DNA of 20,000 bases from an uncultured virus (IMG/VR IMGVR_UViG_3300025121_000021) (Duplodnaviria; Heunggongvirae; Uroviricota; Caudoviricetes): the IMG/VR virus record IMGVR_UViG_3300025121_000021; one strand, written 5' to 3'. Within the stretch, counting starts at the first letter, position 1, and each line of letters begins with the position of its first letter. Position numbers and translations under genes: made by a program. Of the stretch, positions 1 through 20,000 are shown one piece after another. The notes under the pieces are model-generated. The model made no database searches and had not been told where the DNA came from. It saw only the letters and a list, made by a program, of their open reading frames with translations.

Positions 1-47
1 TGGAGGCCGGGATGACCTCCTTGATCACGGTCTTGGAGGCCGGGATG
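1..47. repeat. 33-bp-period direct repeat within the HU-like gene
   Basis: TGGAGGCCGGGATG at 1-14 and 34-47. TTGATCACGGTCTTGG also occurs at 21-36 and 282-297. Confidence 0.85.
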
Positions 48-346
48 TCGATAACCGCGCCGGTCTGGGGATTCCTGCTGCGCCGTCGCATGATCTGGTC
101 TTGGGCCTTAGCCCTCAACCAGATTTCGTTCTCGATATCCTTCCAGGTGTGGCACGCCTTGGTCAACGTTATCATGTGGCCACGGCTGACACTTAACCCG
201 TTGAGAGCCGCAATGGCTCTCTTCACCTTGACCCAACTCCGGACCGAGGCCCGGGTGTCGAACAGGACGTCGCACACTTCGTTGATCACGGTCTTGGTCA
301 GACCGTGATGTTTAAGGGTGTTACTTAAGACTAATTGCTGGTTCAT
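1..346 (-). CDS. Divergent HU/IHF-like DNA-binding protein (3' end runs off window)
   Basis: Hand-translated: GGAGG RBS (351-355) then ATG at 346, open to the window edge. Product: MNQQLVLSNTLKHHGLTKTVINEVCDVLFDT...RRRSRNPQTGAVIDIPASKTVIKEVIPAS. The N-terminus resembles HU helices 1-2 and RNPQTG-x-x-I-x-IPASK matches the HU arm. The GFGTF strand motif is absent. Confidence 0.7.
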   Translation of the reverse strand, partial: MNQQLVLSNTLKHHGLTKTVINEVCDVLFDTRASVRSWVKVKRAIAALNGLSVSRGHMITLTKACHTWKDIENEIWLRAKAQDQIMRRRSRNPQTGAVIDIPASKTVIKEVIPAS

Positions 347-367
347 ATTTCCTCCATAAAGAGGGTT

Positions 368-743
368 GACTTCTGGCCCCGAACCATTAGGTACCCAGAA
401 GTTTGGGCATCTTGTGCCCGCCGGGGTTATGGACTCCCGGCAGCCTCGTGATTCTGGCTCACGTCGCCCTGTTTCGGATTCTCCACCGCTCATCATGAGG
501 GAGAAATCCGCAACCACTCCTCCTTGAGTGGAGATATATGAGACGATTTTTTCTTCGGGGTTCGTCTCAAGCCCCTATTTTTCACCAGGAAGAGGGGGTA
601 AGACCTAAGATGAGTGACTAGACGGTCTCACTCACCCTCCCTTCCCGGTGAAAACGTGGGGTTACTCTCATGCCTCTCCGGTAGCGCCCCAAAACTTCCG
701 GAGAGAGGGGGGTGGGCATCGAACGCCGATGTTTCTCACCCTC
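368..743. other. GC-rich array of about 10 consecutive inverted repeats (candidate structured RNA or DNA element)
   Basis: Stems seen: ACTTCTGG/CCAGAAGT (369-402), GGGCA/TGCCC (405-419), GCCGGG/CCCGGC (420-441), CGTGA/TCACG (447-463), CGGATTCTCC/GGAGAAATCCG (475-510), CCACTC/GAGTGG (514-531), TGAGACGA/TCGTCTCA (539-569), a ~21-bp stem (579-599/634-654), CTCTCCGG/CCGGAGAG (674-705), and GGGTG..CATCG/CGATG..CACCC (710-741). Confidence 0.75.
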
Positions 744-760
744 ATACTTCACTGGGTACT

Positions 761-880
761 CCTTCTAAATTATTTCCAGATTTATTTTCATATAGGAAAA
801 TTACAGATTCTTCCCCTTCTAAATTTATTTCAAACTTTATTTTCCGTAGGAATTTTTCACTCATGGGATCCTTCTCTAAA
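761..880. repeat. AT-rich imperfect direct repeats, 54-55 bp period
   Basis: CCTTCTAAATT at 761 and 815, TTTATTTTC at 781 and 836, TAGGAA at 793 and 847, and a third CCTTCT at 870. Confidence 0.75.
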
Positions 881-971: not shown

Positions 972-1000
972 TTTACTTTATAAGGGCGATTTAGTATAAT
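972..1000 (+). promoter_or_regulatory. sigma70/sigmaA-type promoter
   Basis: TTTACT (972-977), 17-bp spacer, TATAAT (995-1000), 31 bp upstream of the first + strand gene. Confidence 0.7.
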
Positions 1001-5810: not shown

Positions 5811-6808
5811 TGGCTTGGTATAATACAGCTTGGAATGCTGCTCAAGAGATCGCAGTAGGTCCAATAGGCAAAGGTATGGCTATTGGAGCAGGCGTAGGAG
5901 CCGTTGGTGGTGCTACCTACTCCTTAGGTAGCGATAGGACATCATTCCTTGGAGGAGCCTTTAAAGGTGCTTTACTTGGCGCTGGACTAGGGTCTGGTCA
6001 AGCTACTAAAGGTATCATGGGTGGCGCTATTGCTGGTGGTATTTATGGTGGTATCAAAGACAACCAAACTATCCTAGGTGGGGCTGTCATGGGTGGTGCG
6101 ATTGGTGGAGGTATCCATGCTGGAGGCACACACTTAGGTTGGTGGAAAAAAAAGGCCGCTGCTGCTGGTACTCCTGCTGCTGAGTCCTTAGCAAGTAAGA
6201 ACCAACGAGACATTAATCGGGAAATGGGTTCTGAGGTAATGACATCTACACCAGGAGATGTCGACTATAGAGGTTTATTTGATGAAGGCCTGCATGGTTT
6301 TCTTGCTGACAAAAAGCGTCTTGCTGCCGAGCGTGCTGCTGCGGCTGCCGCTCCCGCTCCTTCTGCAGTCGCTTCTCCTGCTCCTGTTATTCCAACTGCT
6401 TCTAGTGTAGCAAATACAATTCAGGCAATTAAAGAAACTTCTACGGGAGTTTGGGGAGTTGCAGAGAGTCAAGAACTTATAGATTCGTCAACAAAGAGAC
6501 TTAAAGATAAATATAGTAGTATGCTCAATAAAACATTACCTCCTGAGTTTGAAACAAGAAAGAATACTATTTTATCTCATATGCAACAGTCATTTTTGCC
6601 GACATATACAGAAGATCAAATAAACAAAGGCGTTGGAGATCTTGAGAGAGATTTATTTGATCTCTTTAAAGATGTAAGTGGGTTGAAAGCTGCCAAAGAA
6701 GCAACTAAAGTGGCTACAAAGTCATTAAAGGAGGGAAATTTAACAAATAGTCCATCTCTTAAAAAACAGCGTAAGAATAAACAACCAAAAAAGAATCAAC
6801 GTAGATGA
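5810..6808 (+). CDS. Glycine-zipper protein with Ala/Pro linker and basic tail
   Basis: Four GxxxG-rich helices in two repeated units (aa ~21-61 and ~67-101), then an AAAAAAPAPSAVASPAP linker and a KKQRKNKQPKKNQRR tail. GGAGG RBS upstream. Confidence 0.7.
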   Translation: MAWYNTAWNAAQEIAVGPIGKGMAIGAGVGAVGGATYSLGSDRTSFLGGAFKGALLGAGLGSGQATKGIMGGAIAGGIYGGIKDNQTILGGAVMGGAIGGGIHAGGTHLGWWKKKAAAAGTPAAESLASKNQRDINREMGSEVMTSTPGDVDYRGLFDEGLHGFLADKKRLAAERAAAAAAPAPSAVASPAPVIPTASSVANTIQAIKETSTGVWGVAESQELIDSSTKRLKDKYSSMLNKTLPPEFETRKNTILSHMQQSFLPTYTEDQINKGVGDLERDLFDLFKDVSGLKAAKEATKVATKSLKEGNLTNSPSLKKQRKNKQPKKNQRR

Positions 6809-8769
6809 AAATAAAAGACGAGTTTCTTCACCCATATTGTAAACAGTGTCGCAAGGAGCGAATAGTTCAAGAAACTGTCGTTCTAGAAGGCAAGGTTATA
6901 CATAAAAAAGGAGACTTTGTTATCGACTGTAGTGGCATACCCAAAGATGGGTATGTACTATTTGACGGAAAAATAATCTCTGAAGACGATTTAAAAAAAG
7001 TTGGACAATTCTCTGAAGACCATATAGATTTAATAAAACAAATTGGCAACCCTGCTCATTGGGCTTACAGAAATATCATTAGACCAGATAAGACTCCTTG
7101 GGAATCACGAGTGGCTCAAAAAGGAACTGCTTGTGCTGGACTTAAATATCAAGAGATGATGCTCCGTTGTAATGCTAATCGTATAGTGTGTAGACTAGGG
7201 CGGCGCAGTGGAAAAACGGATGTCCTTGCAATTAAAGCACTTTTTTATGCTTTCACCAATTCTCCCCGAGCAAGGAGAAAAGATAAGAGCAATGAATGGG
7301 CAAGAGGCTTAAGCGAAATAATGGTTTTGTGTCCATACAAAACGCAGGTAGATGAAGTTTTCAAACGAATCCGAGAATTTATAGAAAATAGTTCTACTTT
7401 AATGAATTCTATTGCAAGAGATGTCAAAACTCCAATTCAAGAAATTGTATTTAGTAATGGATCTCGTATTAAAGGATTCTCTGCCGGATCTAATAGTAAT
7501 TCTGGTGCGGCATCTTCTCGTGGTCAAGACGTCCATTTCCTTATTATGGACGAAATGGATTATTTAAACCAAGAAGACGTAGATGCTATTAACCCTGTAT
7601 TAGGTACTGTTAAAGATGGTTGTCTACTAGGAAGTTCAACTCCCTCGGGCGCGCGTGGGATTCTTTATAACAAATCTAATGATCCTACTTATAAAGAGTT
7701 TCATTTTCCTTCTCATGTTAGCGATACATGGACGCCACAATTAGATCAAGAACATAGAGTTCAATTAACAGAGAGCGCATATCAGAGAGAAATATTGGCA
7801 CTTTTTGGAGAATTAGAAGCTGGTGTTTTTCAGCCTAAATATATTGAAAGCGCTCAGGCTCCGTATAATTATGCGACTTGTGTCCCTAATAGAAATCTTT
7901 TCTACTTTATTGGTGGAGATTGGAACGACGAAAAAAATGGTTCTACTTTCACAGTTGTAGAATTTAATCCTTTTACTGCAAGTGCTAGAAAAGTACACGA
8001 ATCTATCATCAGTAAAAAAGACTGGAACCAGTCTGCAGCAGTAAATGAAGTCATTAGGCTAAATACTTTCTGGAAACCAGAGTTTATATACTTAGACGAA
8101 GGTTATGGAGCCTACCAAATAGAAATATTAAAAACTGTTGGTATTGCGGCCTCTAACAATCCAGAACAACACAATTTACAAACCGCACGTTTAAAAGACA
8201 TTATTAAAGCTTATAATTTTTCATCTACTATTGATGTCATAGATCCTTTAACAACAGAAAAGATTAAAAAGCGCGCCAAACCGTTTCTTATTGAAAATAT
8301 AGTCCGTTTTTTTGAACAACAAAAATGTTTGATTTCAGATATCGATACAACTCTCATTAAACAAATGGGAAATTATATCATTAAACACGTATCATCTACG
8401 GGACAACCTATTTATGCTTGTAGAGATGCCAACATAGGCGACCATAGTCTTGACTCTCTAGCCTTGGCTCTAGTTGGGATTACTCTTGAGAATAGTGACC
8501 TTTTGAATATTAGAGTTACGGATACGATGCAATACATGGAAGATCATAATCTATATAAAGACAGAGAAGCAACTGGTCAAGGACGCCCAGTAAAAGATGA
8601 TATTTATAGTCGGCAATCTATAACAAATCAACCTAAAGAAAAACGGATTATTAATCATCCAGACGATTTTACAAAAGCTTCTGATGAAAAAGATGAACAT
8701 GGCAATTTTATTCAGTCATATATTGTAAAAAAACGCAATCAACCTAAGACACGTAGAACTAATTGCTAA
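6805..8769 (+). CDS. terL: Terminase large subunit
   Basis: Q motif (KYQ), Walker A GRRSGKT, RGQD, Walker B FLIMDE, coupling motif SSTP-x-G, and RNase H-like nuclease residues IGGDW, YLDEG and DHSLDS. Confidence 0.95.
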   Translation: MKIKDEFLHPYCKQCRKERIVQETVVLEGKVIHKKGDFVIDCSGIPKDGYVLFDGKIISEDDLKKVGQFSEDHIDLIKQIGNPAHWAYRNIIRPDKTPWESRVAQKGTACAGLKYQEMMLRCNANRIVCRLGRRSGKTDVLAIKALFYAFTNSPRARRKDKSNEWARGLSEIMVLCPYKTQVDEVFKRIREFIENSSTLMNSIARDVKTPIQEIVFSNGSRIKGFSAGSNSNSGAASSRGQDVHFLIMDEMDYLNQEDVDAINPVLGTVKDGCLLGSSTPSGARGILYNKSNDPTYKEFHFPSHVSDTWTPQLDQEHRVQLTESAYQREILALFGELEAGVFQPKYIESAQAPYNYATCVPNRNLFYFIGGDWNDEKNGSTFTVVEFNPFTASARKVHESIISKKDWNQSAAVNEVIRLNTFWKPEFIYLDEGYGAYQIEILKTVGIAASNNPEQHNLQTARLKDIIKAYNFSSTIDVIDPLTTEKIKKRAKPFLIENIVRFFEQQKCLISDIDTTLIKQMGNYIIKHVSSTGQPIYACRDANIGDHSLDSLALALVGITLENSDLLNIRVTDTMQYMEDHNLYKDREATGQGRPVKDDIYSRQSITNQPKEKRIINHPDDFTKASDEKDEHGNFIQSYIVKKRNQPKTRRTNC

Positions 8770-10236: not shown

Positions 10237-12125
10237 TTTCTCCTGCTTTATTAGAGATTCGCGCGCACGCGGAAAAAATCATAATAGAATACGAAGAGTT
10301 TATTCGATCTAAAGTGACAACTAGTCAAGATGCTATAAGTGTAGCTCTTTACCGAAAAACTAAAGATGCCCGCCATCTCACGTCTTTCCAAAATGATGTA
10401 GTTAAATTCTTGCGTGACCCCAATAATCCTTCTGCCTCTTTAAGTCTGTCTCCTGAAATACAAGCACAAGCCAAAGATAAAGCAACTGGAATATTAGATG
10501 TTGCTAAAGATAAAGTTAATAAAGAAATTGAAAAACTTCAAGATGCAGTTAAATCTAATTTAACCCCTGATATTGATCTTCCTGGTCAAGATACATGGGA
10601 TAAAATCATGGACTATGCAAAAGATAGAGGGAACAGTTTAAAGTGGGACAATATTAAAGAGAACTGTATTCCTTGTCTAGACCGCGATTGGGCCTTGTTC
10701 AAAGAACTTGGAGATTGGAAAAAACTAGGAAAAGATCTAGTCAAAGCAATGTTGGCTCCGTTCTTAAAATGGTATGAAGACATGAAGGCAATGATCCAGA
10801 AATTAAAGTCATTGCTAAATAATGATTTTTGGAAATTTAATATCTGTCGTTTATTGGAATTATTAAAAGACCTTTTTATGGGGCATTTTAATTGTATTCC
10901 AGATTTTATGGCGATTTTAGCCGCCTTATCTTTTCTTATGTTTCAATTGGCAAATAGCCTAAACATAGGAATGGCTTCATTAGGAATGGCGTTACTCTCT
11001 ACTTTGCTTGCTCCTTTATTCTTCAAAATATCTGCTTGGCTAAAATCTATTCTAGATAAATTAACTGCTCCCCTCGAATGCATTATCAATTCTATCGACC
11101 TCCAACTCTCTAAACTGCCAGAATTTAAACTTAAGTCTTTAGATGTAATGTTTAAAGGGACTCCAGAAACAGCTTCGAGAGAAGCTGAAGTAATTACGGC
11201 CGGTAGTGTAACTATGGCTCAACGTACAAGTGCTGATGGACAAATACGAAGAGCAGAACAAGATATGAGAGAGAAGCAAGCTAGGGATTTAGCTGAAAAA
11301 GCTAAAAATAATCCTGCTCCTCCAGAACCTAAAGAGGATTATTCAAACTGGGAAAAGAAAAGTGAAGCGGCATTTCACCAAAAATTGATTGACCGGATCA
11401 ATATGCCACAAAGAGCGGAAAACCTAACTCAAACAAATAAAGCCGCGACCCAAAGAATGGTAGATGACTGGGCAGTATTAAGTGAAACATCTATGGATAA
11501 TGTTGCTTCCATATTATGGGTAGTCCGAGACGCAATTAAAACTTCCAAAGAATCAATCGTAACTTACGTGGCAAGTCTAGAAAGAATGTTGGCCGATATC
11601 CAATCTTCTCTTAAATCTCAGTTAGAAGAAGATTATAAAATTCTAACAACTATCCAAAGAATTATTAGTCTCATTACCCTTCTTAAGACCCTCAAGGAAA
11701 TATGGGACAAAGGACTAAAATTTTGTGATAAAGATAAATCAGATATTAGCAATGAAGAGATCGCCAATGAATTAGTAAAAAAGGGATATTTTATAGAAGG
11801 AGGAACTAGCAACAGAAATAATCCTATTTCAGTAGAAGAACTTTATAGTCCAGAATCTAAAATCAATTGGACTCCTATTGATAATTCTTCTTCTCCTGAG
11901 GAATTTTCTCCTCCCACTGAAGAAGAAATAAGAGACGGATTGGCCACCGATGGTCAGATAGATTTAACAACAGGATTAAAATTAAAAGTTGTGACTAATC
12001 CTTCAGGATTTAGTTCTTATCAGTTAGTCGTTAATCCAAAGACTTTTAAATGTACCGGCTCTCTAAGTAAATCTGAGTTTGCCGAGTTGAGACAAATGAT
12101 GAGTGAATTACAAGGTGTAAAATGA
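10233..12125 (+). CDS. Large helical hypothetical protein with hydrophobic segment and Cys pairs
   Basis: 630 aa containing CIPC, NIC and NCIPD, a long uncharged stretch 'FMAILAALSFLMFQLANSLNIGMASLGMALLSTLLAPLFF', and coiled-coil-like regions. ATGA overlaps at both ends. Confidence 0.7.
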   Translation: MISPALLEIRAHAEKIIIEYEEFIRSKVTTSQDAISVALYRKTKDARHLTSFQNDVVKFLRDPNNPSASLSLSPEIQAQAKDKATGILDVAKDKVNKEIEKLQDAVKSNLTPDIDLPGQDTWDKIMDYAKDRGNSLKWDNIKENCIPCLDRDWALFKELGDWKKLGKDLVKAMLAPFLKWYEDMKAMIQKLKSLLNNDFWKFNICRLLELLKDLFMGHFNCIPDFMAILAALSFLMFQLANSLNIGMASLGMALLSTLLAPLFFKISAWLKSILDKLTAPLECIINSIDLQLSKLPEFKLKSLDVMFKGTPETASREAEVITAGSVTMAQRTSADGQIRRAEQDMREKQARDLAEKAKNNPAPPEPKEDYSNWEKKSEAAFHQKLIDRINMPQRAENLTQTNKAATQRMVDDWAVLSETSMDNVASILWVVRDAIKTSKESIVTYVASLERMLADIQSSLKSQLEEDYKILTTIQRIISLITLLKTLKEIWDKGLKFCDKDKSDISNEEIANELVKKGYFIEGGTSNRNNPISVEELYSPESKINWTPIDNSSSPEEFSPPTEEEIRDGLATDGQIDLTTGLKLKVVTNPSGFSSYQLVVNPKTFKCTGSLSKSEFAELRQMMSELQGVK

Positions 12126-14140
12126 TAGAGCCTATTACCAAGTTATATTTAAACAAGTATTCTCTGTTAGATGCGCCTGCTGCTGTTTATACTGTAAGGA
12201 CTATTGCTGACCTCAAACCTGAACGTAAAAAGGTTGAAGGATTTATTGAAAATTCTGATATGTTCAGAAGTCCAGAATATAATTTTGCAGAAAATGGAAA
12301 GGCCGCAGATGTTGAAAGTCTAGTTAAACGATCTATAGAACTTAAACATACCTTGATGTTTAAGGAAGGGTATGTATTAGTCGGTTCAAATGCAGATCGA
12401 GTCGATTATATTAGAGAGCGTTTTCGTCAGTTGGGTGTTGCTCAACAACAACCAATGGACTTATTAATTCGAGAATTAGCGCGCTCTTTTTTCAGAAATA
12501 GTAACGCTTTTGCATTAAAAGTTCGTAACGCAAAAAATTCTGGTGGCAAAGTCAGAAAAGCTAATGGAAAAGATATTCAACCGATTTCTGCTCTTTTCGA
12601 AATTCCTTCTGAAACAATTTGTTATAAGAAGAAGAATAATCAAGTAGTAGCCTGGGGTCAAGACCCTCGGACATTAGATGGTTCTGATCAAGTATTATGG
12701 TCTACTTATACAGTCAGCAATAGAGACTCAGGTGTATGGGGTCCAGGTGACGTTCTACATTTCTATAGAAGTCGCAAAGCAGGGTTTGTTCTTGGAACTC
12801 CTGATTTAGTCCCTATCCTTGACGATATTCGTGCTCTCAGGCGTATAGAACAAAATGTTGAATTATTAATTTATCAACACATTTATCCTTTATATCATTA
12901 TCGGATTGGTACCGATGGAATGCCAGCGCGAGAAAATAAAGGAACAGATGGATATGATGAAATTGAGCGCGCAAAAGTTAAGATAGAAGATATTCCACCT
13001 GAAGGAATGTTTATTACCTCTCATCGACATGAAATAAGAGCTATTGGAGCAGAAGGAAAAGCGTTAGAAGTCCAAGAATACTTACAGTATTTCCTTAAGC
13101 GCGTAATTATAGGGTTAGGAATATCTGAGGTAGACCTCGGTCTTGGAGATTCGGCAAATAGATCTACAGCGGAAAATATTTCTAAGAATTTAGTTGACCT
13201 TGTAAAAGGTGTCCAGCGTGAATTCGAGATATTCATGAATGAGAATTTTATCTACGAGCTTCTATTGGAAGGTGGGTTCTCTGATCCTCTTTCAAAAGAT
13301 AATATAGTGCATTTTCGTTTTAATGAAATCGATATAGACAAAAAGATTAAATTAGAAAATCACGAAATGACACTTTATCAAGGCGGTTTGACAACTCAGG
13401 ACGAAGCACGAGTGCAATTAGGTAGAGATGTATTGAATGAAAGACAGCAAAAAGAAACATTCGTTTATTTAGTCGAGATTCCTAAATTAAAGGTAAAACT
13501 AGAAACAAATGTAAATAAGACAGAAGGTGCAAGCAAAATGGCAACTTCTAGAGCAAAGCCTAGAAATCAACATACAGATTTTATGGATAGTGCCACAGAT
13601 TCAGTAATATCAGAGTTAGTAAAAGAACTTAAAGATATGTCAAATTATTCATCTTCTAAAGATTGGAAGAGAATAATTATTGAAATGGCTGCCAGCAATT
13701 TAGCTGATATTTATCATGAGAATGTCTTGCTGACATTCAAAAATAACCTTAGACATCATGATCTAAAAAAATCAGAAGTTCAATCTATGATAGGTATTGC
13801 GCAAAAAGAGATGGATAAAATCGTCTTGAGTTCTTTAGAATATTTCGCGACTAAATTGAGAAAAAAATTAGAAACAAATACTTTAATAGATTCTATTGAT
13901 AGTCTTGATTATATGATTAAATTCCTTAATAATACTGTTCCTGCACAAACAAAAAATTATATAGTAGTCTTAGATCAGAGATTATTAGGTAAAGATTATG
14001 TTAAAATAGTAGCTTCGGATGGATGTCAAACTTGTCTAGATTATAAAGACAAGTTATTATATATAAAGAATGGGGTTAGTGTAACCGACATCCCTCCATG
14101 GCATTTTAATTGTAAATGTGAAATTACACCAGTAGGTTAA
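12122..14140 (+). CDS. Portal protein with C-terminal MuF/SPP1 gp7-like domain
   Basis: Positioned before the protease. Portal-like segments include NAFALKVR, DVLHF...GTPDL, 'IIGLGISEVDLG..DSANRSTA', 'FRFNEID' and 'GLTTQDEAR.QLG'. The C-terminal CQTC...PPWHFNCKC matches the Mu F motif. Confidence 0.85.
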   Translation: MIEPITKLYLNKYSLLDAPAAVYTVRTIADLKPERKKVEGFIENSDMFRSPEYNFAENGKAADVESLVKRSIELKHTLMFKEGYVLVGSNADRVDYIRERFRQLGVAQQQPMDLLIRELARSFFRNSNAFALKVRNAKNSGGKVRKANGKDIQPISALFEIPSETICYKKKNNQVVAWGQDPRTLDGSDQVLWSTYTVSNRDSGVWGPGDVLHFYRSRKAGFVLGTPDLVPILDDIRALRRIEQNVELLIYQHIYPLYHYRIGTDGMPARENKGTDGYDEIERAKVKIEDIPPEGMFITSHRHEIRAIGAEGKALEVQEYLQYFLKRVIIGLGISEVDLGLGDSANRSTAENISKNLVDLVKGVQREFEIFMNENFIYELLLEGGFSDPLSKDNIVHFRFNEIDIDKKIKLENHEMTLYQGGLTTQDEARVQLGRDVLNERQQKETFVYLVEIPKLKVKLETNVNKTEGASKMATSRAKPRNQHTDFMDSATDSVISELVKELKDMSNYSSSKDWKRIIIEMAASNLADIYHENVLLTFKNNLRHHDLKKSEVQSMIGIAQKEMDKIVLSSLEYFATKLRKKLETNTLIDSIDSLDYMIKFLNNTVPAQTKNYIVVLDQRLLGKDYVKIVASDGCQTCLDYKDKLLYIKNGVSVTDIPPWHFNCKCEITPVG

Positions 14141-17922: not shown

Positions 17923-19269
17923 ATGGATAAGAGTTTTAAAGTAACTATTAGCGACAAAGTAGCCGTATATTCTGATGACAAAGTTCTACAGAATTTAGCG
18001 CGCAAAGAAACCAAAGGCGAAAACGGTAAATTAGTTGCTAAAGATGCTAACAAAGTTTATGAAGATCGCGTTGAATGGTGTTCACACCTATTCAGGAATG
18101 ATGGTCTTTCTCCCGAAGGGGAATATGTTCCTATCACCGACGCTTTAAATGCTCAAGATGCTTCAATCGTTTTCCCGAAAACTATTGTAAATCTTGCTCG
18201 TGAAGCTCAGGAACCCCTTTTAATTGGTACTGCTCTTCTTGACCGTATCCAATGGAAACCAGGTATGCAGGTATTTTTACCTAATGCTATTGGTGCTCTT
18301 GGCGGCGTAAAGAGAATGGCAGACATGGAAGAATATCCAGAAGTCAGCCTCCAGATGGGTGGCGGAACTGTATTTGATAGTATTGGGAAATTCGGCTTAG
18401 CTGTTAAATTCTCCGATGAAATGCTTCGTTATTCGCAGTACGATATTATTGCTATGCATATCCGTGCTGTGGGTCGTGCCTTCGCTCGCGCGAAAGAATC
18501 AAATATTTTTGCCATGATTTCGAGTCTGGGTGAAACGGTATTCGATAATGCCACTCCAGCTAGTTCAGTATTTGGTATCACTACTGGCCGTGGCCTTACT
18601 GGCTCAGCCAATGGTTCTTTAACTGTTGATGACTTATTTGACGCTTATACTCATTTAGTCAGCAAAGGTTATAGTCCCGATACTTTACTTATGCATCCTC
18701 TTACTTGGAACATGTTTATGCGTGATCCTATTATGCGTATGATGATGCTAAATTCAGGTGGCGGAACTTATTTCGCTACTTATAATGGTTCCTTCTCAAA
18801 TACTAATCCTTGGGGCAGCCAACCTGCTAATGGTATTGGTATGGGTCGCGGAACTATGATTAATCCTAATTATAGTGAAGTCGAGAATTACAGTCAGAAC
18901 CTAACCAGTGCTCCTGTTCTTCCTTCTTACTTCCCGTTCCCGTTGCGCATTGTTGTTTCTCCGTTTGTAACTCATGATCCTATCCGTGATCTCACTGAGA
19001 TTTATCTCTTTGAGTCAGGAGAATTAGGTGTCATTCTTCAAGACGAAGAACTCACTAGCCAACAGTGGGAAGATCCTGCTCGTGATATTCAAAAGATTAA
19101 ATTCCGTGAAAGATATAATCTTATGATTAAAAATGAGGGTCAGGCTGTCGCTACTTTTGCCAACATCAAAGTTATTGCTAACCAGGTAGTTCTACCTGCT
19201 CAGGCTCAGATTGAAGTTGGTTCGGGTGCTTCAATTGACGAACTTGATCTCCGTACTGCTGTGGTATAA
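17923..19269 (+). CDS. Major capsid protein (HK97 fold)
   Basis: AGGAGG RBS. E-loop/backbone helix pattern 'EEYPE...KFGLAVKFSDEMLRYSQYDIIAMHIRAVGRAFARAKE', plus 'PDTLLMHP', 'IVVSPFV' and 'IKFRERY'. Followed by a terminator. Confidence 0.92.
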   Translation: MDKSFKVTISDKVAVYSDDKVLQNLARKETKGENGKLVAKDANKVYEDRVEWCSHLFRNDGLSPEGEYVPITDALNAQDASIVFPKTIVNLAREAQEPLLIGTALLDRIQWKPGMQVFLPNAIGALGGVKRMADMEEYPEVSLQMGGGTVFDSIGKFGLAVKFSDEMLRYSQYDIIAMHIRAVGRAFARAKESNIFAMISSLGETVFDNATPASSVFGITTGRGLTGSANGSLTVDDLFDAYTHLVSKGYSPDTLLMHPLTWNMFMRDPIMRMMMLNSGGGTYFATYNGSFSNTNPWGSQPANGIGMGRGTMINPNYSEVENYSQNLTSAPVLPSYFPFPLRIVVSPFVTHDPIRDLTEIYLFESGELGVILQDEELTSQQWEDPARDIQKIKFRERYNLMIKNEGQAVATFANIKVIANQVVLPAQAQIEVGSGASIDELDLRTAVV

Positions 19270-19869: not shown

Positions 19870-19877
19870 GGAATATT

Positions 19878-20000
19878 ATGGCAGATATTACACCAGTCGT
19901 TAGTCCTCCAAATATACCAGACATAGGGTCTACTGGAGTTGCAACCCTTCCGACCATTACAGCAATATTTGAAACATATTGTATGGACGAAGCTTCTATC
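19878..20000 (+). CDS. Partial ORF, possible Ig-like (SbsA/Big_5-type) virion protein
   Basis: AAGGA RBS and ATG at 19878, open to the window edge. Product MADITPVVSPPNIPDIGSTGVATLPTITAIFETYCMDEASI fits P-x-x-G-x-T-G-V...I-x-x-x-F...MD-x-x-S. Confidence 0.55.
   Translation, partial: MADITPVVSPPNIPDIGSTGVATLPTITAIFETYCMDEASI

Follow-up and report, generated by a model that had tools for sequence, protein, structure and literature searches.

What is the array of stem-loops that fills positions 368-743 of a 20,000-nucleotide stretch of DNA (the window) from the uncultured virus IMGVR_UViG_3300025121_000021? The record, of groundwater origin, is that of a tailed dsDNA phage with genes for terminase, portal, major capsid protein and DNA polymerase; its genome is AT-rich (~34% GC), and the block lies in a divergent intergenic region that adjoins the packaging module. 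An earlier note, made from the sequence alone, had offered three readings of these hairpins: a phage non-coding RNA, a long regulatory 5' leader of a neighbouring HU-like gene, or a structure formed in single-stranded or cruciform DNA after the manner of the T5 injection-stop signal. Our analyses show that the hairpin array is real, yet that it is no discrete element. On balance, and with moderate confidence, we read positions ~347-760 on the minus strand as a 5' untranslated leader, ~0.4 kb long, that belongs to the giant and hyper-structured mRNA of a gene for 3,260 amino acids. The features on which this account draws are collected in Table 1.

Table 1. Features of the locus, in window coordinates
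Feature	Position	Strand	Remarks
First 115 codons of 3,260-aa multi-domain ORF	1..346	-	runs beyond the window to contig 29,437
Translation initiation region	344..364	-	ATG 346-344; Shine-Dalgarno GGAGG 355-351
Hairpin array	368..743	-	55.9% GC; ~11 predicted hairpins on minus strand
Closing helix, 3' arm	391..402	-	pairing probability 0.83-0.96 (minus strand)
Closing helix, 5' arm	746..759	-	at AT-to-GC step
16-bp helix of array	654-639/594-579	-	predicted fold
8-9-bp helices of array	706-698/681-673, 631-624/605-598, 569-562/546-539	-	predicted fold
5-6-bp helices of array (1)	741-737/714-710, 731-727/721-717, 531-526/519-514, 510-505/480-475	-	
5-6-bp helices of array (2)	463-459/451-447, 441-436/425-420, 419-415/409-405	-	
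AT-rich upstream region, two tandem ~55-bp direct repeats	761..875	-	28.6% GC over 763-1031
Sigma-70-like promoter, TTTACT-17-TATAAT	972..1000	+	10/12 matches; serves divergent gene 1032-1673
Terminase large-subunit gene (TerL)	6805-8769		
Portal gene	12122-14140		
Major capsid gene	17923-19269		

The stem-loops sit where the note had placed them. Both strands of 347-760 fold far more stably than dinucleotide shuffles, of which 100 were made for each: the plus strand has a minimum free energy (MFE) of -171.1 kcal/mol against a shuffle mean of -140.7 (z = -4.71), the minus strand one of -177.2 kcal/mol (z = -5.69), and in neither case was the native value equalled (0/100). The several 8-bp stems that had been noticed are helices of 8-9 bp, with pairing probabilities above 0.9 at 539-546/562-569, 674-681/698-705 and 598-605/624-631. 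The long stem is likewise present, its 31-nt arms (572-602 and 631-661) being 77% complementary, and AGACC/GGTCT and TGAGTGA/TCACTCA, the two rival pairings inside it, emerge as alternatives when the two strands are folded. A long-range closing helix of 12 bp, with a 2-nt bulge in its 5' arm, is predicted to surround the array, and a local hairpin (403-395/376-368) competes with its 3' arm. Less came of a reported cUUCGg tetraloop: CTTCGG does stand at 553-558 of the plus strand, but its stem consists only of a C-G pair plus a U·G pair (probability 0.41) and, since this stem is weak and lies on the strand antisense to the gene, the motif was given no weight. No repeated motif, direct-repeat family, iterons or tandem repeats were found within 368-743, and the array matches the 125-kb record once only; repeated extragenic palindromes, MITE-like elements and a CRISPR array were rejected on these grounds.

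The two edges of the array differ in kind. At the upper end there is a sharp compositional step, from 28.6% GC (763-1031) to 55.9% (368-743). The lower edge at 368 is no boundary at all, for hairpins carry on at equal density into the coding sequence, whose beginning includes a 10-bp perfect stem (285-294/300-309) and is as hairpin-rich as the leader. The note was right in its distance of ~13 nt from the ribosome-binding site (the array begins 12-13 nt from the Shine-Dalgarno sequence); what it could not see is that the structure does not end at this point.

The gene thus entered is not the small HU gene that had been supposed. It is an ORF of 3,260 codons, in which two HU-like arms occupy the first ~200 residues; Pfam Bac_DNA_binding matches residues 166-198 with E = 6e-11, while the part of the protein inside the window scores 22.0 bits against a cut-off of 22.4 bits. 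The giant ORF also contains DUF1653, a CCA-adding enzyme (called as PolyA_pol) with an HD domain, two visible HExxH motifs for which no peptidase family was matched, eight SEGH motifs and long segments to which no domain was assigned. The SEGH motifs look like candidate cleavage sites, and they recur in the GC-rich as well as the AT-rich stretches of the ORF, which we count in favour of those parts being one evolutionary unit. Several unrelated domains in one polypeptide, encoded in a portal-terminase context, suggest a gene of the polyvalent or polyprotein type.

How far does the structured state extend? A regression of MFE on GC content flagged the coding island and did not single out the leader, and shuffle-based scans were therefore made. 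These show that the GC-rich, hairpin-rich state sets in sharply at ~760 and then continues for ~7.7 kb (contig 19.26-27.0 kb) into the ORF. From contig 19,351 to 26,851, 43 of 51 consecutive 150-nt windows have z < -2, compared with 0/9 in flanking AT-rich phage genes. Three 400-nt coding pieces of the island gave z = -6.06, -7.06 and -4.70, and a piece of the TerL gene gave +1.49 in the same test; across the whole record the island has a mean z of -3.6 (15 windows) against -0.68 for the rest (236 windows). Perfect stems of at least 6 bp number 83, where shuffles have 17.2 +/- 5.3, the corresponding figures in two control regions being 40 against 22.7 and 60 against 44.6. The excess does not follow from the protein or from codon usage, both of which were retained when synonymous codons were shuffled: the native sequence averages -55.5 kcal/mol per 150 nt and the shuffled -42.4, with z < -2 in 22/25 windows of the island. 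In the 3' part of the giant ORF the same shuffle gives z = -0.95 (0/8 windows below -2), and in eleven control genes the mean z is -0.2 to -1.5. Altogether, the energy excess of the structured region over randomised controls is ~25-38%. The hairpin loops are A-rich (35%) and have no common motif; a family of protein-binding hairpins was rejected, no loop sequence being recurrent among 162 hairpins.

Composition changes along the same path. Along the ORF, GC3 drops from 0.80 on the 5' side to 0.38 on the 3' side (other phage genes, 0.23-0.31), and the structured domain ends together with the GC enrichment ~2.4 kb short of the stop codon. Such a pattern might be expected if the island were imported or mutationally shaped GC-rich DNA without present function, its hairpins being inherited or a by-product. 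In the import version, modules would have been captured from GC-rich sources, the newest at the 5' end, with amelioration towards the 3' end; in the mutational version, GC-biased or quasi-palindrome-generating repair would have spread from a site near 760. The sharp step at that site, the module-wise fall of GC3 (0.79, 0.70, 0.69, 0.66, 0.67, 0.55, 0.52, 0.41, 0.38, 0.39, 0.39) and the joint end of structure and enrichment inside the ORF all accord with this. So does the fact that the phage-encoded tRNAs read A/U-ending codons, which makes GC3-rich codons atypical for the phage. Moreover, 69 nt of the HU-like part (253-321) match a GC-rich HU-type gene on a soil contig at ~93% identity, which hints that at least part of the GC-rich DNA was imported. 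Nevertheless, GC1 and GC2 of the island are ordinary for the phage and GC3 alone is shifted; a GC-matched control, the ordinary GC-rich phage L005 (51% GC), is without such structure, its mean z being -0.46 over 45 windows against dinucleotide shuffles and -0.2 to -1.5 against synonymous ones; and import alone creates no energy excess of ~30% over synonymous shuffles. The SEGH motif common to GC-rich and AT-rich modules, and the strand-specific excess and open start site described below, also speak against this explanation, which we regard as rather unlikely.

An abrupt change in composition might, finally, betray an assembly artefact that joined unrelated DNA at the AT/GC junction; nothing else speaks for it and we consider it effectively refuted. 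The region and its junction are identical base for base (0 mismatches) in three further loci from two other records, making four in all with L004, a 190-kb and a 21-kb contig, and contigs of 13 DNA runs carry more than half of the region's sampled words; the identical loci and these contigs together exclude a chimera. One contig of run X13 spans 600-1140 without difference, a piece of an X13 contig over 399-552 has 2 differing letters that are not itemised, and no stop interrupts the ORF in the 9.8 kb that span the compositional gradient. Among four DNA runs no differences are listed within 368-743, positions 401-800 being absent from X14, X15 and X16. None of the listed runs that carry the sequence is an RNA run.

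The earlier note had left the orientation open, having seen wobble pairs on both strands. For the leader alone this remains a fair judgement, as wobble pairs do occur on both of its strands and it offers 1 G·T among only 2 single mismatches, which is uninformative. The continuous structured domain points to the minus (coding) strand. Sense folds more stably than antisense (-52.9 against -47.5 kcal/mol per 150 nt; paired t test, p = 6e-5), with z = -3.0 against -2.2 (Wilcoxon, p = 5e-4), and among single mismatches inside helices otherwise formed of Watson-Crick pairs there are 43 G·T against 11 A·C on the sense strand, where composition predicts ~1:1 (p = 1.7e-5); control regions have 8:8 and 24:14. 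These strand-specific traits are those of the domain as a whole, of which the block is a continuous part, as would be expected of a leader.

The G·T excess would equally fit single-stranded DNA of the same polarity. G·T is the best-tolerated mismatch in DNA too, and strand bias could reflect one exposed DNA strand. This brings in the possibility of a DNA-level element, in which single-stranded or supercoiled DNA would form hairpins or cruciforms that serve the initiation of replication, packaging or ejection. HU-family proteins prefer distorted DNA, and such an element might be bound by the HU-like domains encoded next door. That both strands fold far beyond their shuffles, and that the site is a divergent intergenic one beside the packaging module, would suit it. 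We nevertheless consider a DNA-level element very unlikely: the hairpin-rich state takes in 7.3 kb of coding sequence; it sets in at an AT-rich region that resembles a promoter, fades along the path of transcription and leaves the ribosome-binding site free. The comparison with T5 that the note had drawn is disfavoured by the strand asymmetry and by the single copy without repeated motif. The T5 signal and this locus have in common that inverted repeats are clustered in non-coding DNA of a large lytic phage. T5-type signals, however, are built of palindromic motifs that recur at the leading end of the packaged DNA. In the present block no motif is repeated, the distance to the contig end is ~19 kb (two assemblies break off there, within ~130 bp of one another), and the structure enters coding sequence with a sense-strand bias.

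A third possibility is that 368-743 is an independent structured non-coding RNA, on either strand, which lies upstream of the giant gene by chance. The fold is strong and in part well defined, with many helices above 0.9 in probability and a closing helix that would produce a compact multi-branch domain, and the block has no evident protein-coding potential. Yet its structure density and composition run unbroken into the ORF, so that it has no boundary apart from the mRNA, and the lone terminator-like site inside it (plus strand, 557-575) is at chance level, 1.4 being expected. The note could match the array to no tRNA, tmRNA, RNase P, SRP or known ribozyme, and this was borne out: Rfam 15 gave no family for positions 1-1500 (the best match, MIR5229, scored 26.7 bits against a gathering score of 80) and none at gathering score for the 13-kb locus, a gathering-threshold scan of 143 kb returned only tRNAs, none of them in the block, and ARAGORN found no tRNA there either. 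Nor did relatives emerge. BLASTN in 'distant' mode against 50,697 phage records had no match to the region; when the N-terminal 482 aa of the giant protein served to scan viral and metagenome sequences, identical copies alone came back; and a word-index search with residues 1-480 and 580-2000 against proteins of 1,793-5,705 aa recovered only the protein itself. The note had proposed to collect homologous intergenic regions through related terminases. We aligned 25 TerL relatives and obtained 80 loci, and BLASTN of leader and island against 79 of them gave chance-level hits only (E of at least 0.05), the leader having no homologue in these 79 loci; the large ORF of one relative, L005, is not homologous to the giant ORF. 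A separate non-coding RNA seems to us highly improbable.

In a screen of the same 79 loci, the top places went to GC-rich, hyper-structured stretches upstream of the packaging genes in L035 and L075, which are homologous neither to the array region nor to each other; that of L075 includes tandem coding repeats and pieces that resemble tRNA 3' halves by eye, where neither ARAGORN nor Rfam finds a tRNA. Neither stretch was counted as support.

Downstream of the array, accessibility within the structured domain reaches its local peak at the initiation region: in 30-nt bins covering contig 19,270 to 21,100, the unpaired probability is highest in the two bins around the ATG (0.52 and 0.60; other bins, 0.11-0.54). 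A small hairpin (364-360/355-351) is predicted at the Shine-Dalgarno sequence, and the MFE structure has pairings that would sequester it and the AUG; a translational throttle of this sort was rejected, since the start site is no less accessible than those of other genes (0.64, compared with an ordinary range of 0.33-0.73 across 18 genes).

On the upstream side, copies of the repeat family lie at 767-789 and 822-844, and on the minus strand each ~55-bp repeat reads, by eye, TTCCTA-N17/18-AATAAT/AATAAA. We propose that these are tandem promoters of the giant gene; a sigma-70 scan found no minus-strand promoter upstream of the array. Elsewhere in the 125-kb record the repeat motif is absent, and a phage-wide promoter motif was rejected on that account. 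The sigma-70-like promoter of Table 1 is separate from the array and belongs to the opposite half of the divergent intergenic region.

The leader reading retains the second of the proposals with which we began, in altered form: the long regulatory 5' leader is the reading that fits best, though not as a self-contained element, the array being the untranslated start of a ~7.7-kb domain. Transcription would start at the AT/GC step near 760, from the upstream AT-rich repeats; the 5' arm of the closing helix lies at this step and hence at the putative 5' end of the transcript, which would be tucked into the helix. The leader would then be continuous with the ORF and form the first part of a transcript-shaped domain that has been driven to G+C and dense local hairpins, within the ORF by way of synonymous sites. 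Leader and first ~2,450 codons would be wall-to-wall hairpins with little single-stranded RNA left, the Shine-Dalgarno/AUG region alone staying comparatively open.

The selective benefit would probably be that a message of ~10 kb stays functional for long or is translated under control, and the structure of the leader probably stabilises or tunes the giant mRNA. Dense structure might hinder single-strand-specific endonucleases, for instance the 5'-end-dependent scanning of RNase E; according to PMC9943677 and PMC11194081, RNase E scans from the 5' end along single-stranded regions for cleavage sites and is hindered by obstacles. Alternatively, the structure may hinder the loading of Rho on the untranslated leader, or slow early elongation. 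Against the leader reading it must be said that simple protection of the whole message does not predict a domain that stops ~2.4 kb before the stop codon.

Hairpins that stabilise bacterial and phage mRNAs from the 5' end, as obstacles to RNase E scanning, are familiar; known stabilisers consist of one or a few hairpins in leaders of tens to ~150 nt. The array resembles them in being untranslated, paired from its inferred 5' end and poor in single strand, and differs in its ~400 nt, its ~11 predicted hairpins and a continuation for kilobases into the ORF. A translational ramp of slow codons offers another parallel, in that codons atypical for the phage crowd together with structure towards the 5' end and become rarer downstream; ramps as described extend over tens of codons, whereas the gradient of the giant ORF spans ~2,400.

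A further likeness is with the genome-scale ordered RNA structure (GORS) of some positive-strand RNA viruses, where an excess of folding energy likewise runs at kilobase scale through coding sequence and is carried by many local hairpins without a motif; an excess of this scale, coding sequence included, is what we find here. The present case differs in being the transcript of a dsDNA tailed phage rather than an RNA genome, in being confined to the 5' ~7.7 kb of one gene with a GC3 gradient, and in its energy excess, which at ~25-38% is larger than the ~10% of GORS viruses. Among the literature matches listed there was no dsDNA-phage case of GORS. A GORS-like 'armoured' messenger, with ~7.7 kb of leader and ORF rewritten at non-coding and synonymous sites into GC-rich hairpins set wall to wall, is a doubtful but possible stronger reading of this gene. 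The ~10-kb message of an injected or packaged polyprotein would in that event survive single-strand-specific host nucleases, namely RNase E and defences of the HEPN, Cas13 and anticodon-nuclease types. Such a messenger would fit the RNA-repair genes of the phage, which comprise an RNA ligase, a kinase-like ATPase and the CCA-adding enzyme. In a bolder variant, the folded RNA may have a second, non-coding role, for example by being bound in cis by nascent HU-like domains.

As regards the protein, the nearest comparison is with the polyvalent proteins of phages and conjugative elements (Iyer et al. 2017, PMC5512222). The giant ORF resembles these in encoding a very large polypeptide of several unrelated domains beside a portal-terminase module, and its possible metallopeptidase motifs and repeated candidate cleavage sites would fit the processing described in the excerpted text of that paper. 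The same text concerns proteins, not mRNA structure or composition, and in it the combination of HU-like, DUF1653 and CCA-adding domains does not appear ('DUF1653' and 'IHF', 0 occurrences).

For the scanning of genomes, the locus teaches that an intergenic 'hairpin array' should be compared with its flanking coding sequence before a non-coding RNA is called, and that a GC-rich island in an AT-rich phage need not be foreign DNA. If the leader reading is true, RNA secondary structure would be selectable at kilobase scale inside a gene of a DNA phage, and three matters normally treated apart would be linked: an island of unusual composition, a long leader rich in structure, and the way in which a giant gene is expressed. 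The locus would then be a concrete test case for mRNA structure as a shield of long bacterial messages from RNases, Rho and RNA-targeting defences.

The hairpin array at window 368-743 is real. For the interval 347-760 the folding energy is -171.1 kcal/mol (z = -4.71) on the plus strand and -177.2 kcal/mol (z = -5.69) on the minus strand, where z is folding energy relative to shuffled sequences, and none of 100 dinucleotide shuffles was as stable on either strand. The long stem described in the earlier note was recovered as a 31-nt imperfect inverted repeat (572-602/631-661) with two competing inner pairings, and the note's 8-bp stems as several helices of 8-9 bp that pair with a probability above 0.9. 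CTTCGG does occur at 553-558 on the plus strand, as had been claimed for a cUUCGg tetraloop, with a weak stem and in antisense orientation relative to the gene. The earlier note could not match the array to tRNA, tmRNA, RNase P, SRP or a known ribozyme; likewise, nothing in an Rfam search came close to threshold, and no tRNA or tmRNA was found. Within a 685-bp divergent intergenic region the block makes up the GC-rich half (55.9% GC), and the AT-rich half (763-1031) has 28.6% GC. Block and AT/GC junction recur in loci from two other records, without a mismatch among four loci in all, and many runs have contigs carrying the block sequence; hence it is not an assembly artefact, a reading we regard as scarcely credible. 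No population variation in the block was found in contigs of four DNA runs or in the records carrying it, and searches of phage, viral and metagenome sequences, of proteins of 1,793-5,705 aa and of the loci of relatives by large terminase subunit (TerL) yielded no diverged relatives of the region.

The adjoining gene, called HU-like in the earlier note, is no small HU gene but a 3,260-codon ORF ending at contig 29,437, and the key result is that the array does not stop at its start codon. Over contig 19,351-26,851, z is below -2 in 43 of 51 consecutive 150-nt sense-strand windows, against none of nine in adjoining AT-rich genes; the excess ceases near contig 27,000, within the ORF (1/17 windows over 27,001-29,401). 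The phage genome is ~34% GC, with a GC-rich island at contig ~19.3-26 kb, and across the whole record mean z is -3.6 in the island (15 windows) versus -0.68 elsewhere (236 windows); a control phage with related TerL and 51% GC gave -0.46 over 45 windows. The folding tool's own z values were -6.06, -7.06 and -4.70 for three 400-nt coding pieces, and +1.49 for a terminase piece. Perfect short hairpins (stem at least 6 bp) number 83 versus 17.2 +/- 5.3 in shuffles, and only 40 versus 22.7 and 60 versus 44.6 in two control regions; hairpin loops are A-rich with no motif in common. That the array is an independent ncRNA is, in our judgement, highly improbable.

The island's structure depends on synonymous choices. 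When synonymous codons were permuted within 300-codon blocks, holding protein sequence and codon usage constant, folding energy per 150 nt was -42.4 kcal/mol, compared with -55.5 kcal/mol in the native sequence; z was negative in all 25 windows and below -2 in 22. By the same test the 3' part of the ORF gave a mean z of -0.95, and eleven control genes -0.2 to -1.5. GC enrichment of the ORF is almost wholly third-position, GC3 declining along its length from 0.80 (5') to 0.38 (3'), compared with 0.23-0.31 in other phage genes, while GC1 and GC2 lie within the range of those genes.

Orientation, left ambiguous in the earlier note, is genuinely so for the leader alone, where Watson-Crick-only helices hold only two single mismatches. 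The domain containing it points to the minus strand. The sense strand of the ORF is more stable when folded than its complement (-52.9 vs -47.5 kcal/mol, p = 6e-5 by paired t test; z = -3.0 vs -2.2, Wilcoxon p = 5e-4). More telling is a strand-symmetric test, in which only Watson-Crick pairs were allowed when folding the island and single mismatches within helices were sorted by type: non-overlapping windows gave 43 G·T against 11 A·C, although a ratio near 1:1 is expected from composition (p = 1.7e-5), and controls gave 8:8 and 24:14. This bias would also fit single-stranded DNA of the same polarity, a point against reading the domain as mRNA; we consider a DNA-level element improbable.

The ORF (L002:2655-12437, a stretch of the same record) encodes two HU-like arms (Pfam match at residues 166-198, E = 6e-11), the first of which lies in the window and reaches 22.0 bits, the cut-off being 22.4. 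It further encodes DUF1653, a CCA-adding enzyme that has an HD domain, and a pair of HExxH motifs. SEGH, usually as [A/N]-S-E-G-H-[acidic], occurs eight times, with two variants (SEGS, SEGL), dividing the protein into modules that coincide with domain boundaries. A protease probably cleaves a polyprotein at these motifs, and the HExxH motifs could supply the peptidase; the ORF fits the concept of phage polyvalent proteins, described in PMC5512222 as processed and packaged. Because 69 nt of the HU-like part resemble a GC-rich HU-type gene, import of GC-rich DNA is a serious, if unlikely, partial explanation of the island. It does not explain why GC1 and GC2 are ordinary, why there is more structure than in synonymous shuffles, why one strand is favoured, or why SEGH is common to GC-rich and AT-rich modules. 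The stretch (window 253-321) matches a 298-nt soil-metagenome contig at ~93% identity, within an apparently ordinary GC-rich HU gene; the contig's flanks are unlike the window, and the match overlaps a 10-bp perfect hairpin at 285-309.

On the most economical reading, which we think probable if only just, 347-760 serves as 5' leader to the mRNA of the giant gene, and selection has favoured dense structure in the first ~7.7 kb of that mRNA; of the readings offered in the earlier note, the leader is the one favoured. In the predicted minus-strand fold a closing helix shuts the array at the AT/GC step, ~11 hairpins follow, and unpaired probability peaks in two 30-nt bins around the ATG (0.52 and 0.60; other bins 0.11-0.54 over contig 19,270-21,100), so that the locus looks like a message. 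Against an mRNA, the ORF runs on beyond the end of the structured domain.

Minus-strand features of the predicted leader and start site (window coordinates)
Feature	Position	Strand	Details
Closing helix	759-746 with 402-391	minus	12 bp, probability 0.83-0.96
Start of giant ORF	ATG 346-344	minus	GGAGG 4 nt upstream

A throttle at translation initiation is unsupported, start-site accessibility (0.64) lying inside the range of 18 other genes (0.33-0.73). Upstream of the leader are two tandem ~55-bp AT-rich repeats, found nowhere else in the record, each reading by eye TTCCTA-N17/18-AATAAT or AATAAA; we propose them as putative promoters of the giant gene, and a sigma-70 scan calls none there. A 44-codon ORF lies within the leader (618-752, minus; GTG start, AGAAGGAG 7 nt upstream); it may be a chance ORF, and could be translated only from a transcript beginning upstream of ~772. 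Downstream of the giant ORF, several more 150-nt windows at contig 29,550-30,800 (L008:550-1800) have z of -3 to -4, which may mean that the same transcript is also structured at its 3' end; a terminator-like hairpin lies at L008:881-897, plus strand.

The window is the first 20 kb, reverse-complemented, of a 125,446-bp viral record. The record (59% complete by CheckV estimate) is a tailed dsDNA phage with TerL, portal, major capsid protein, DNA polymerase, primase-helicase, RNA ligase and six tRNA genes, and its DNA is present in metagenome runs from groundwater and soil, with no RNA run among those listed for the sequence. The tRNAs serve A/U-ending codons (Lys-UUU, Leu-UAA, Ile-UAU twice, His-GUG; L008:4109-10271 and 19134-19207, contig ~33.1-39.3 kb and 48.1 kb), ARAGORN reporting two further ones with abnormal anticodon loops; with the RNA ligase, a kinase-like ATPase and the CCA-adding enzyme they form an RNA-repair set. 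An independent 190-kb contig of this phage stops within ~130 bp of where the record does (window ~19,870-20,000, contig 1-130), just beyond the major capsid gene, which may mark a physical genome end or terminal repeat. ORF L012:319-1257 (contig 105,319-106,257) matches, in two stretches (E = 3e-54), a PHROG family annotated 2-aminooxy adenylosuccinate synthetase, PurZ-like, a possible sign of a modified-adenine genome by a match that does not separate PurZ from PurA. In two phages with distantly related TerL (34-37% identity), GC-rich (0.5-0.7) stretches upstream of packaging genes are also strongly over-folded (L035:1-1500; L075 with L092:1-2000; z down to -10.8), with no homology to this region or to one another. 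L092 is the left end of the L075 contig; its start carries tandem coding repeats and pieces resembling tRNA 3' halves, and is therefore possibly host-derived DNA or an attachment site.

Structured leaders and the pervasive RNA structure of RNA viruses are already known kinds; a limited literature search, which does not establish absence, turned up no account of a dsDNA phage message that is hyper-structured on a kilobase scale and GC3-driven. A possible benefit of the structure would be to shield a very long message from single-strand-specific nucleases, because obstacles, according to PMC9943677 and PMC11194081, block RNase E as it scans from the 5' end; the structure might also avoid Rho loading on a long untranslated leader, or slow early elongation.
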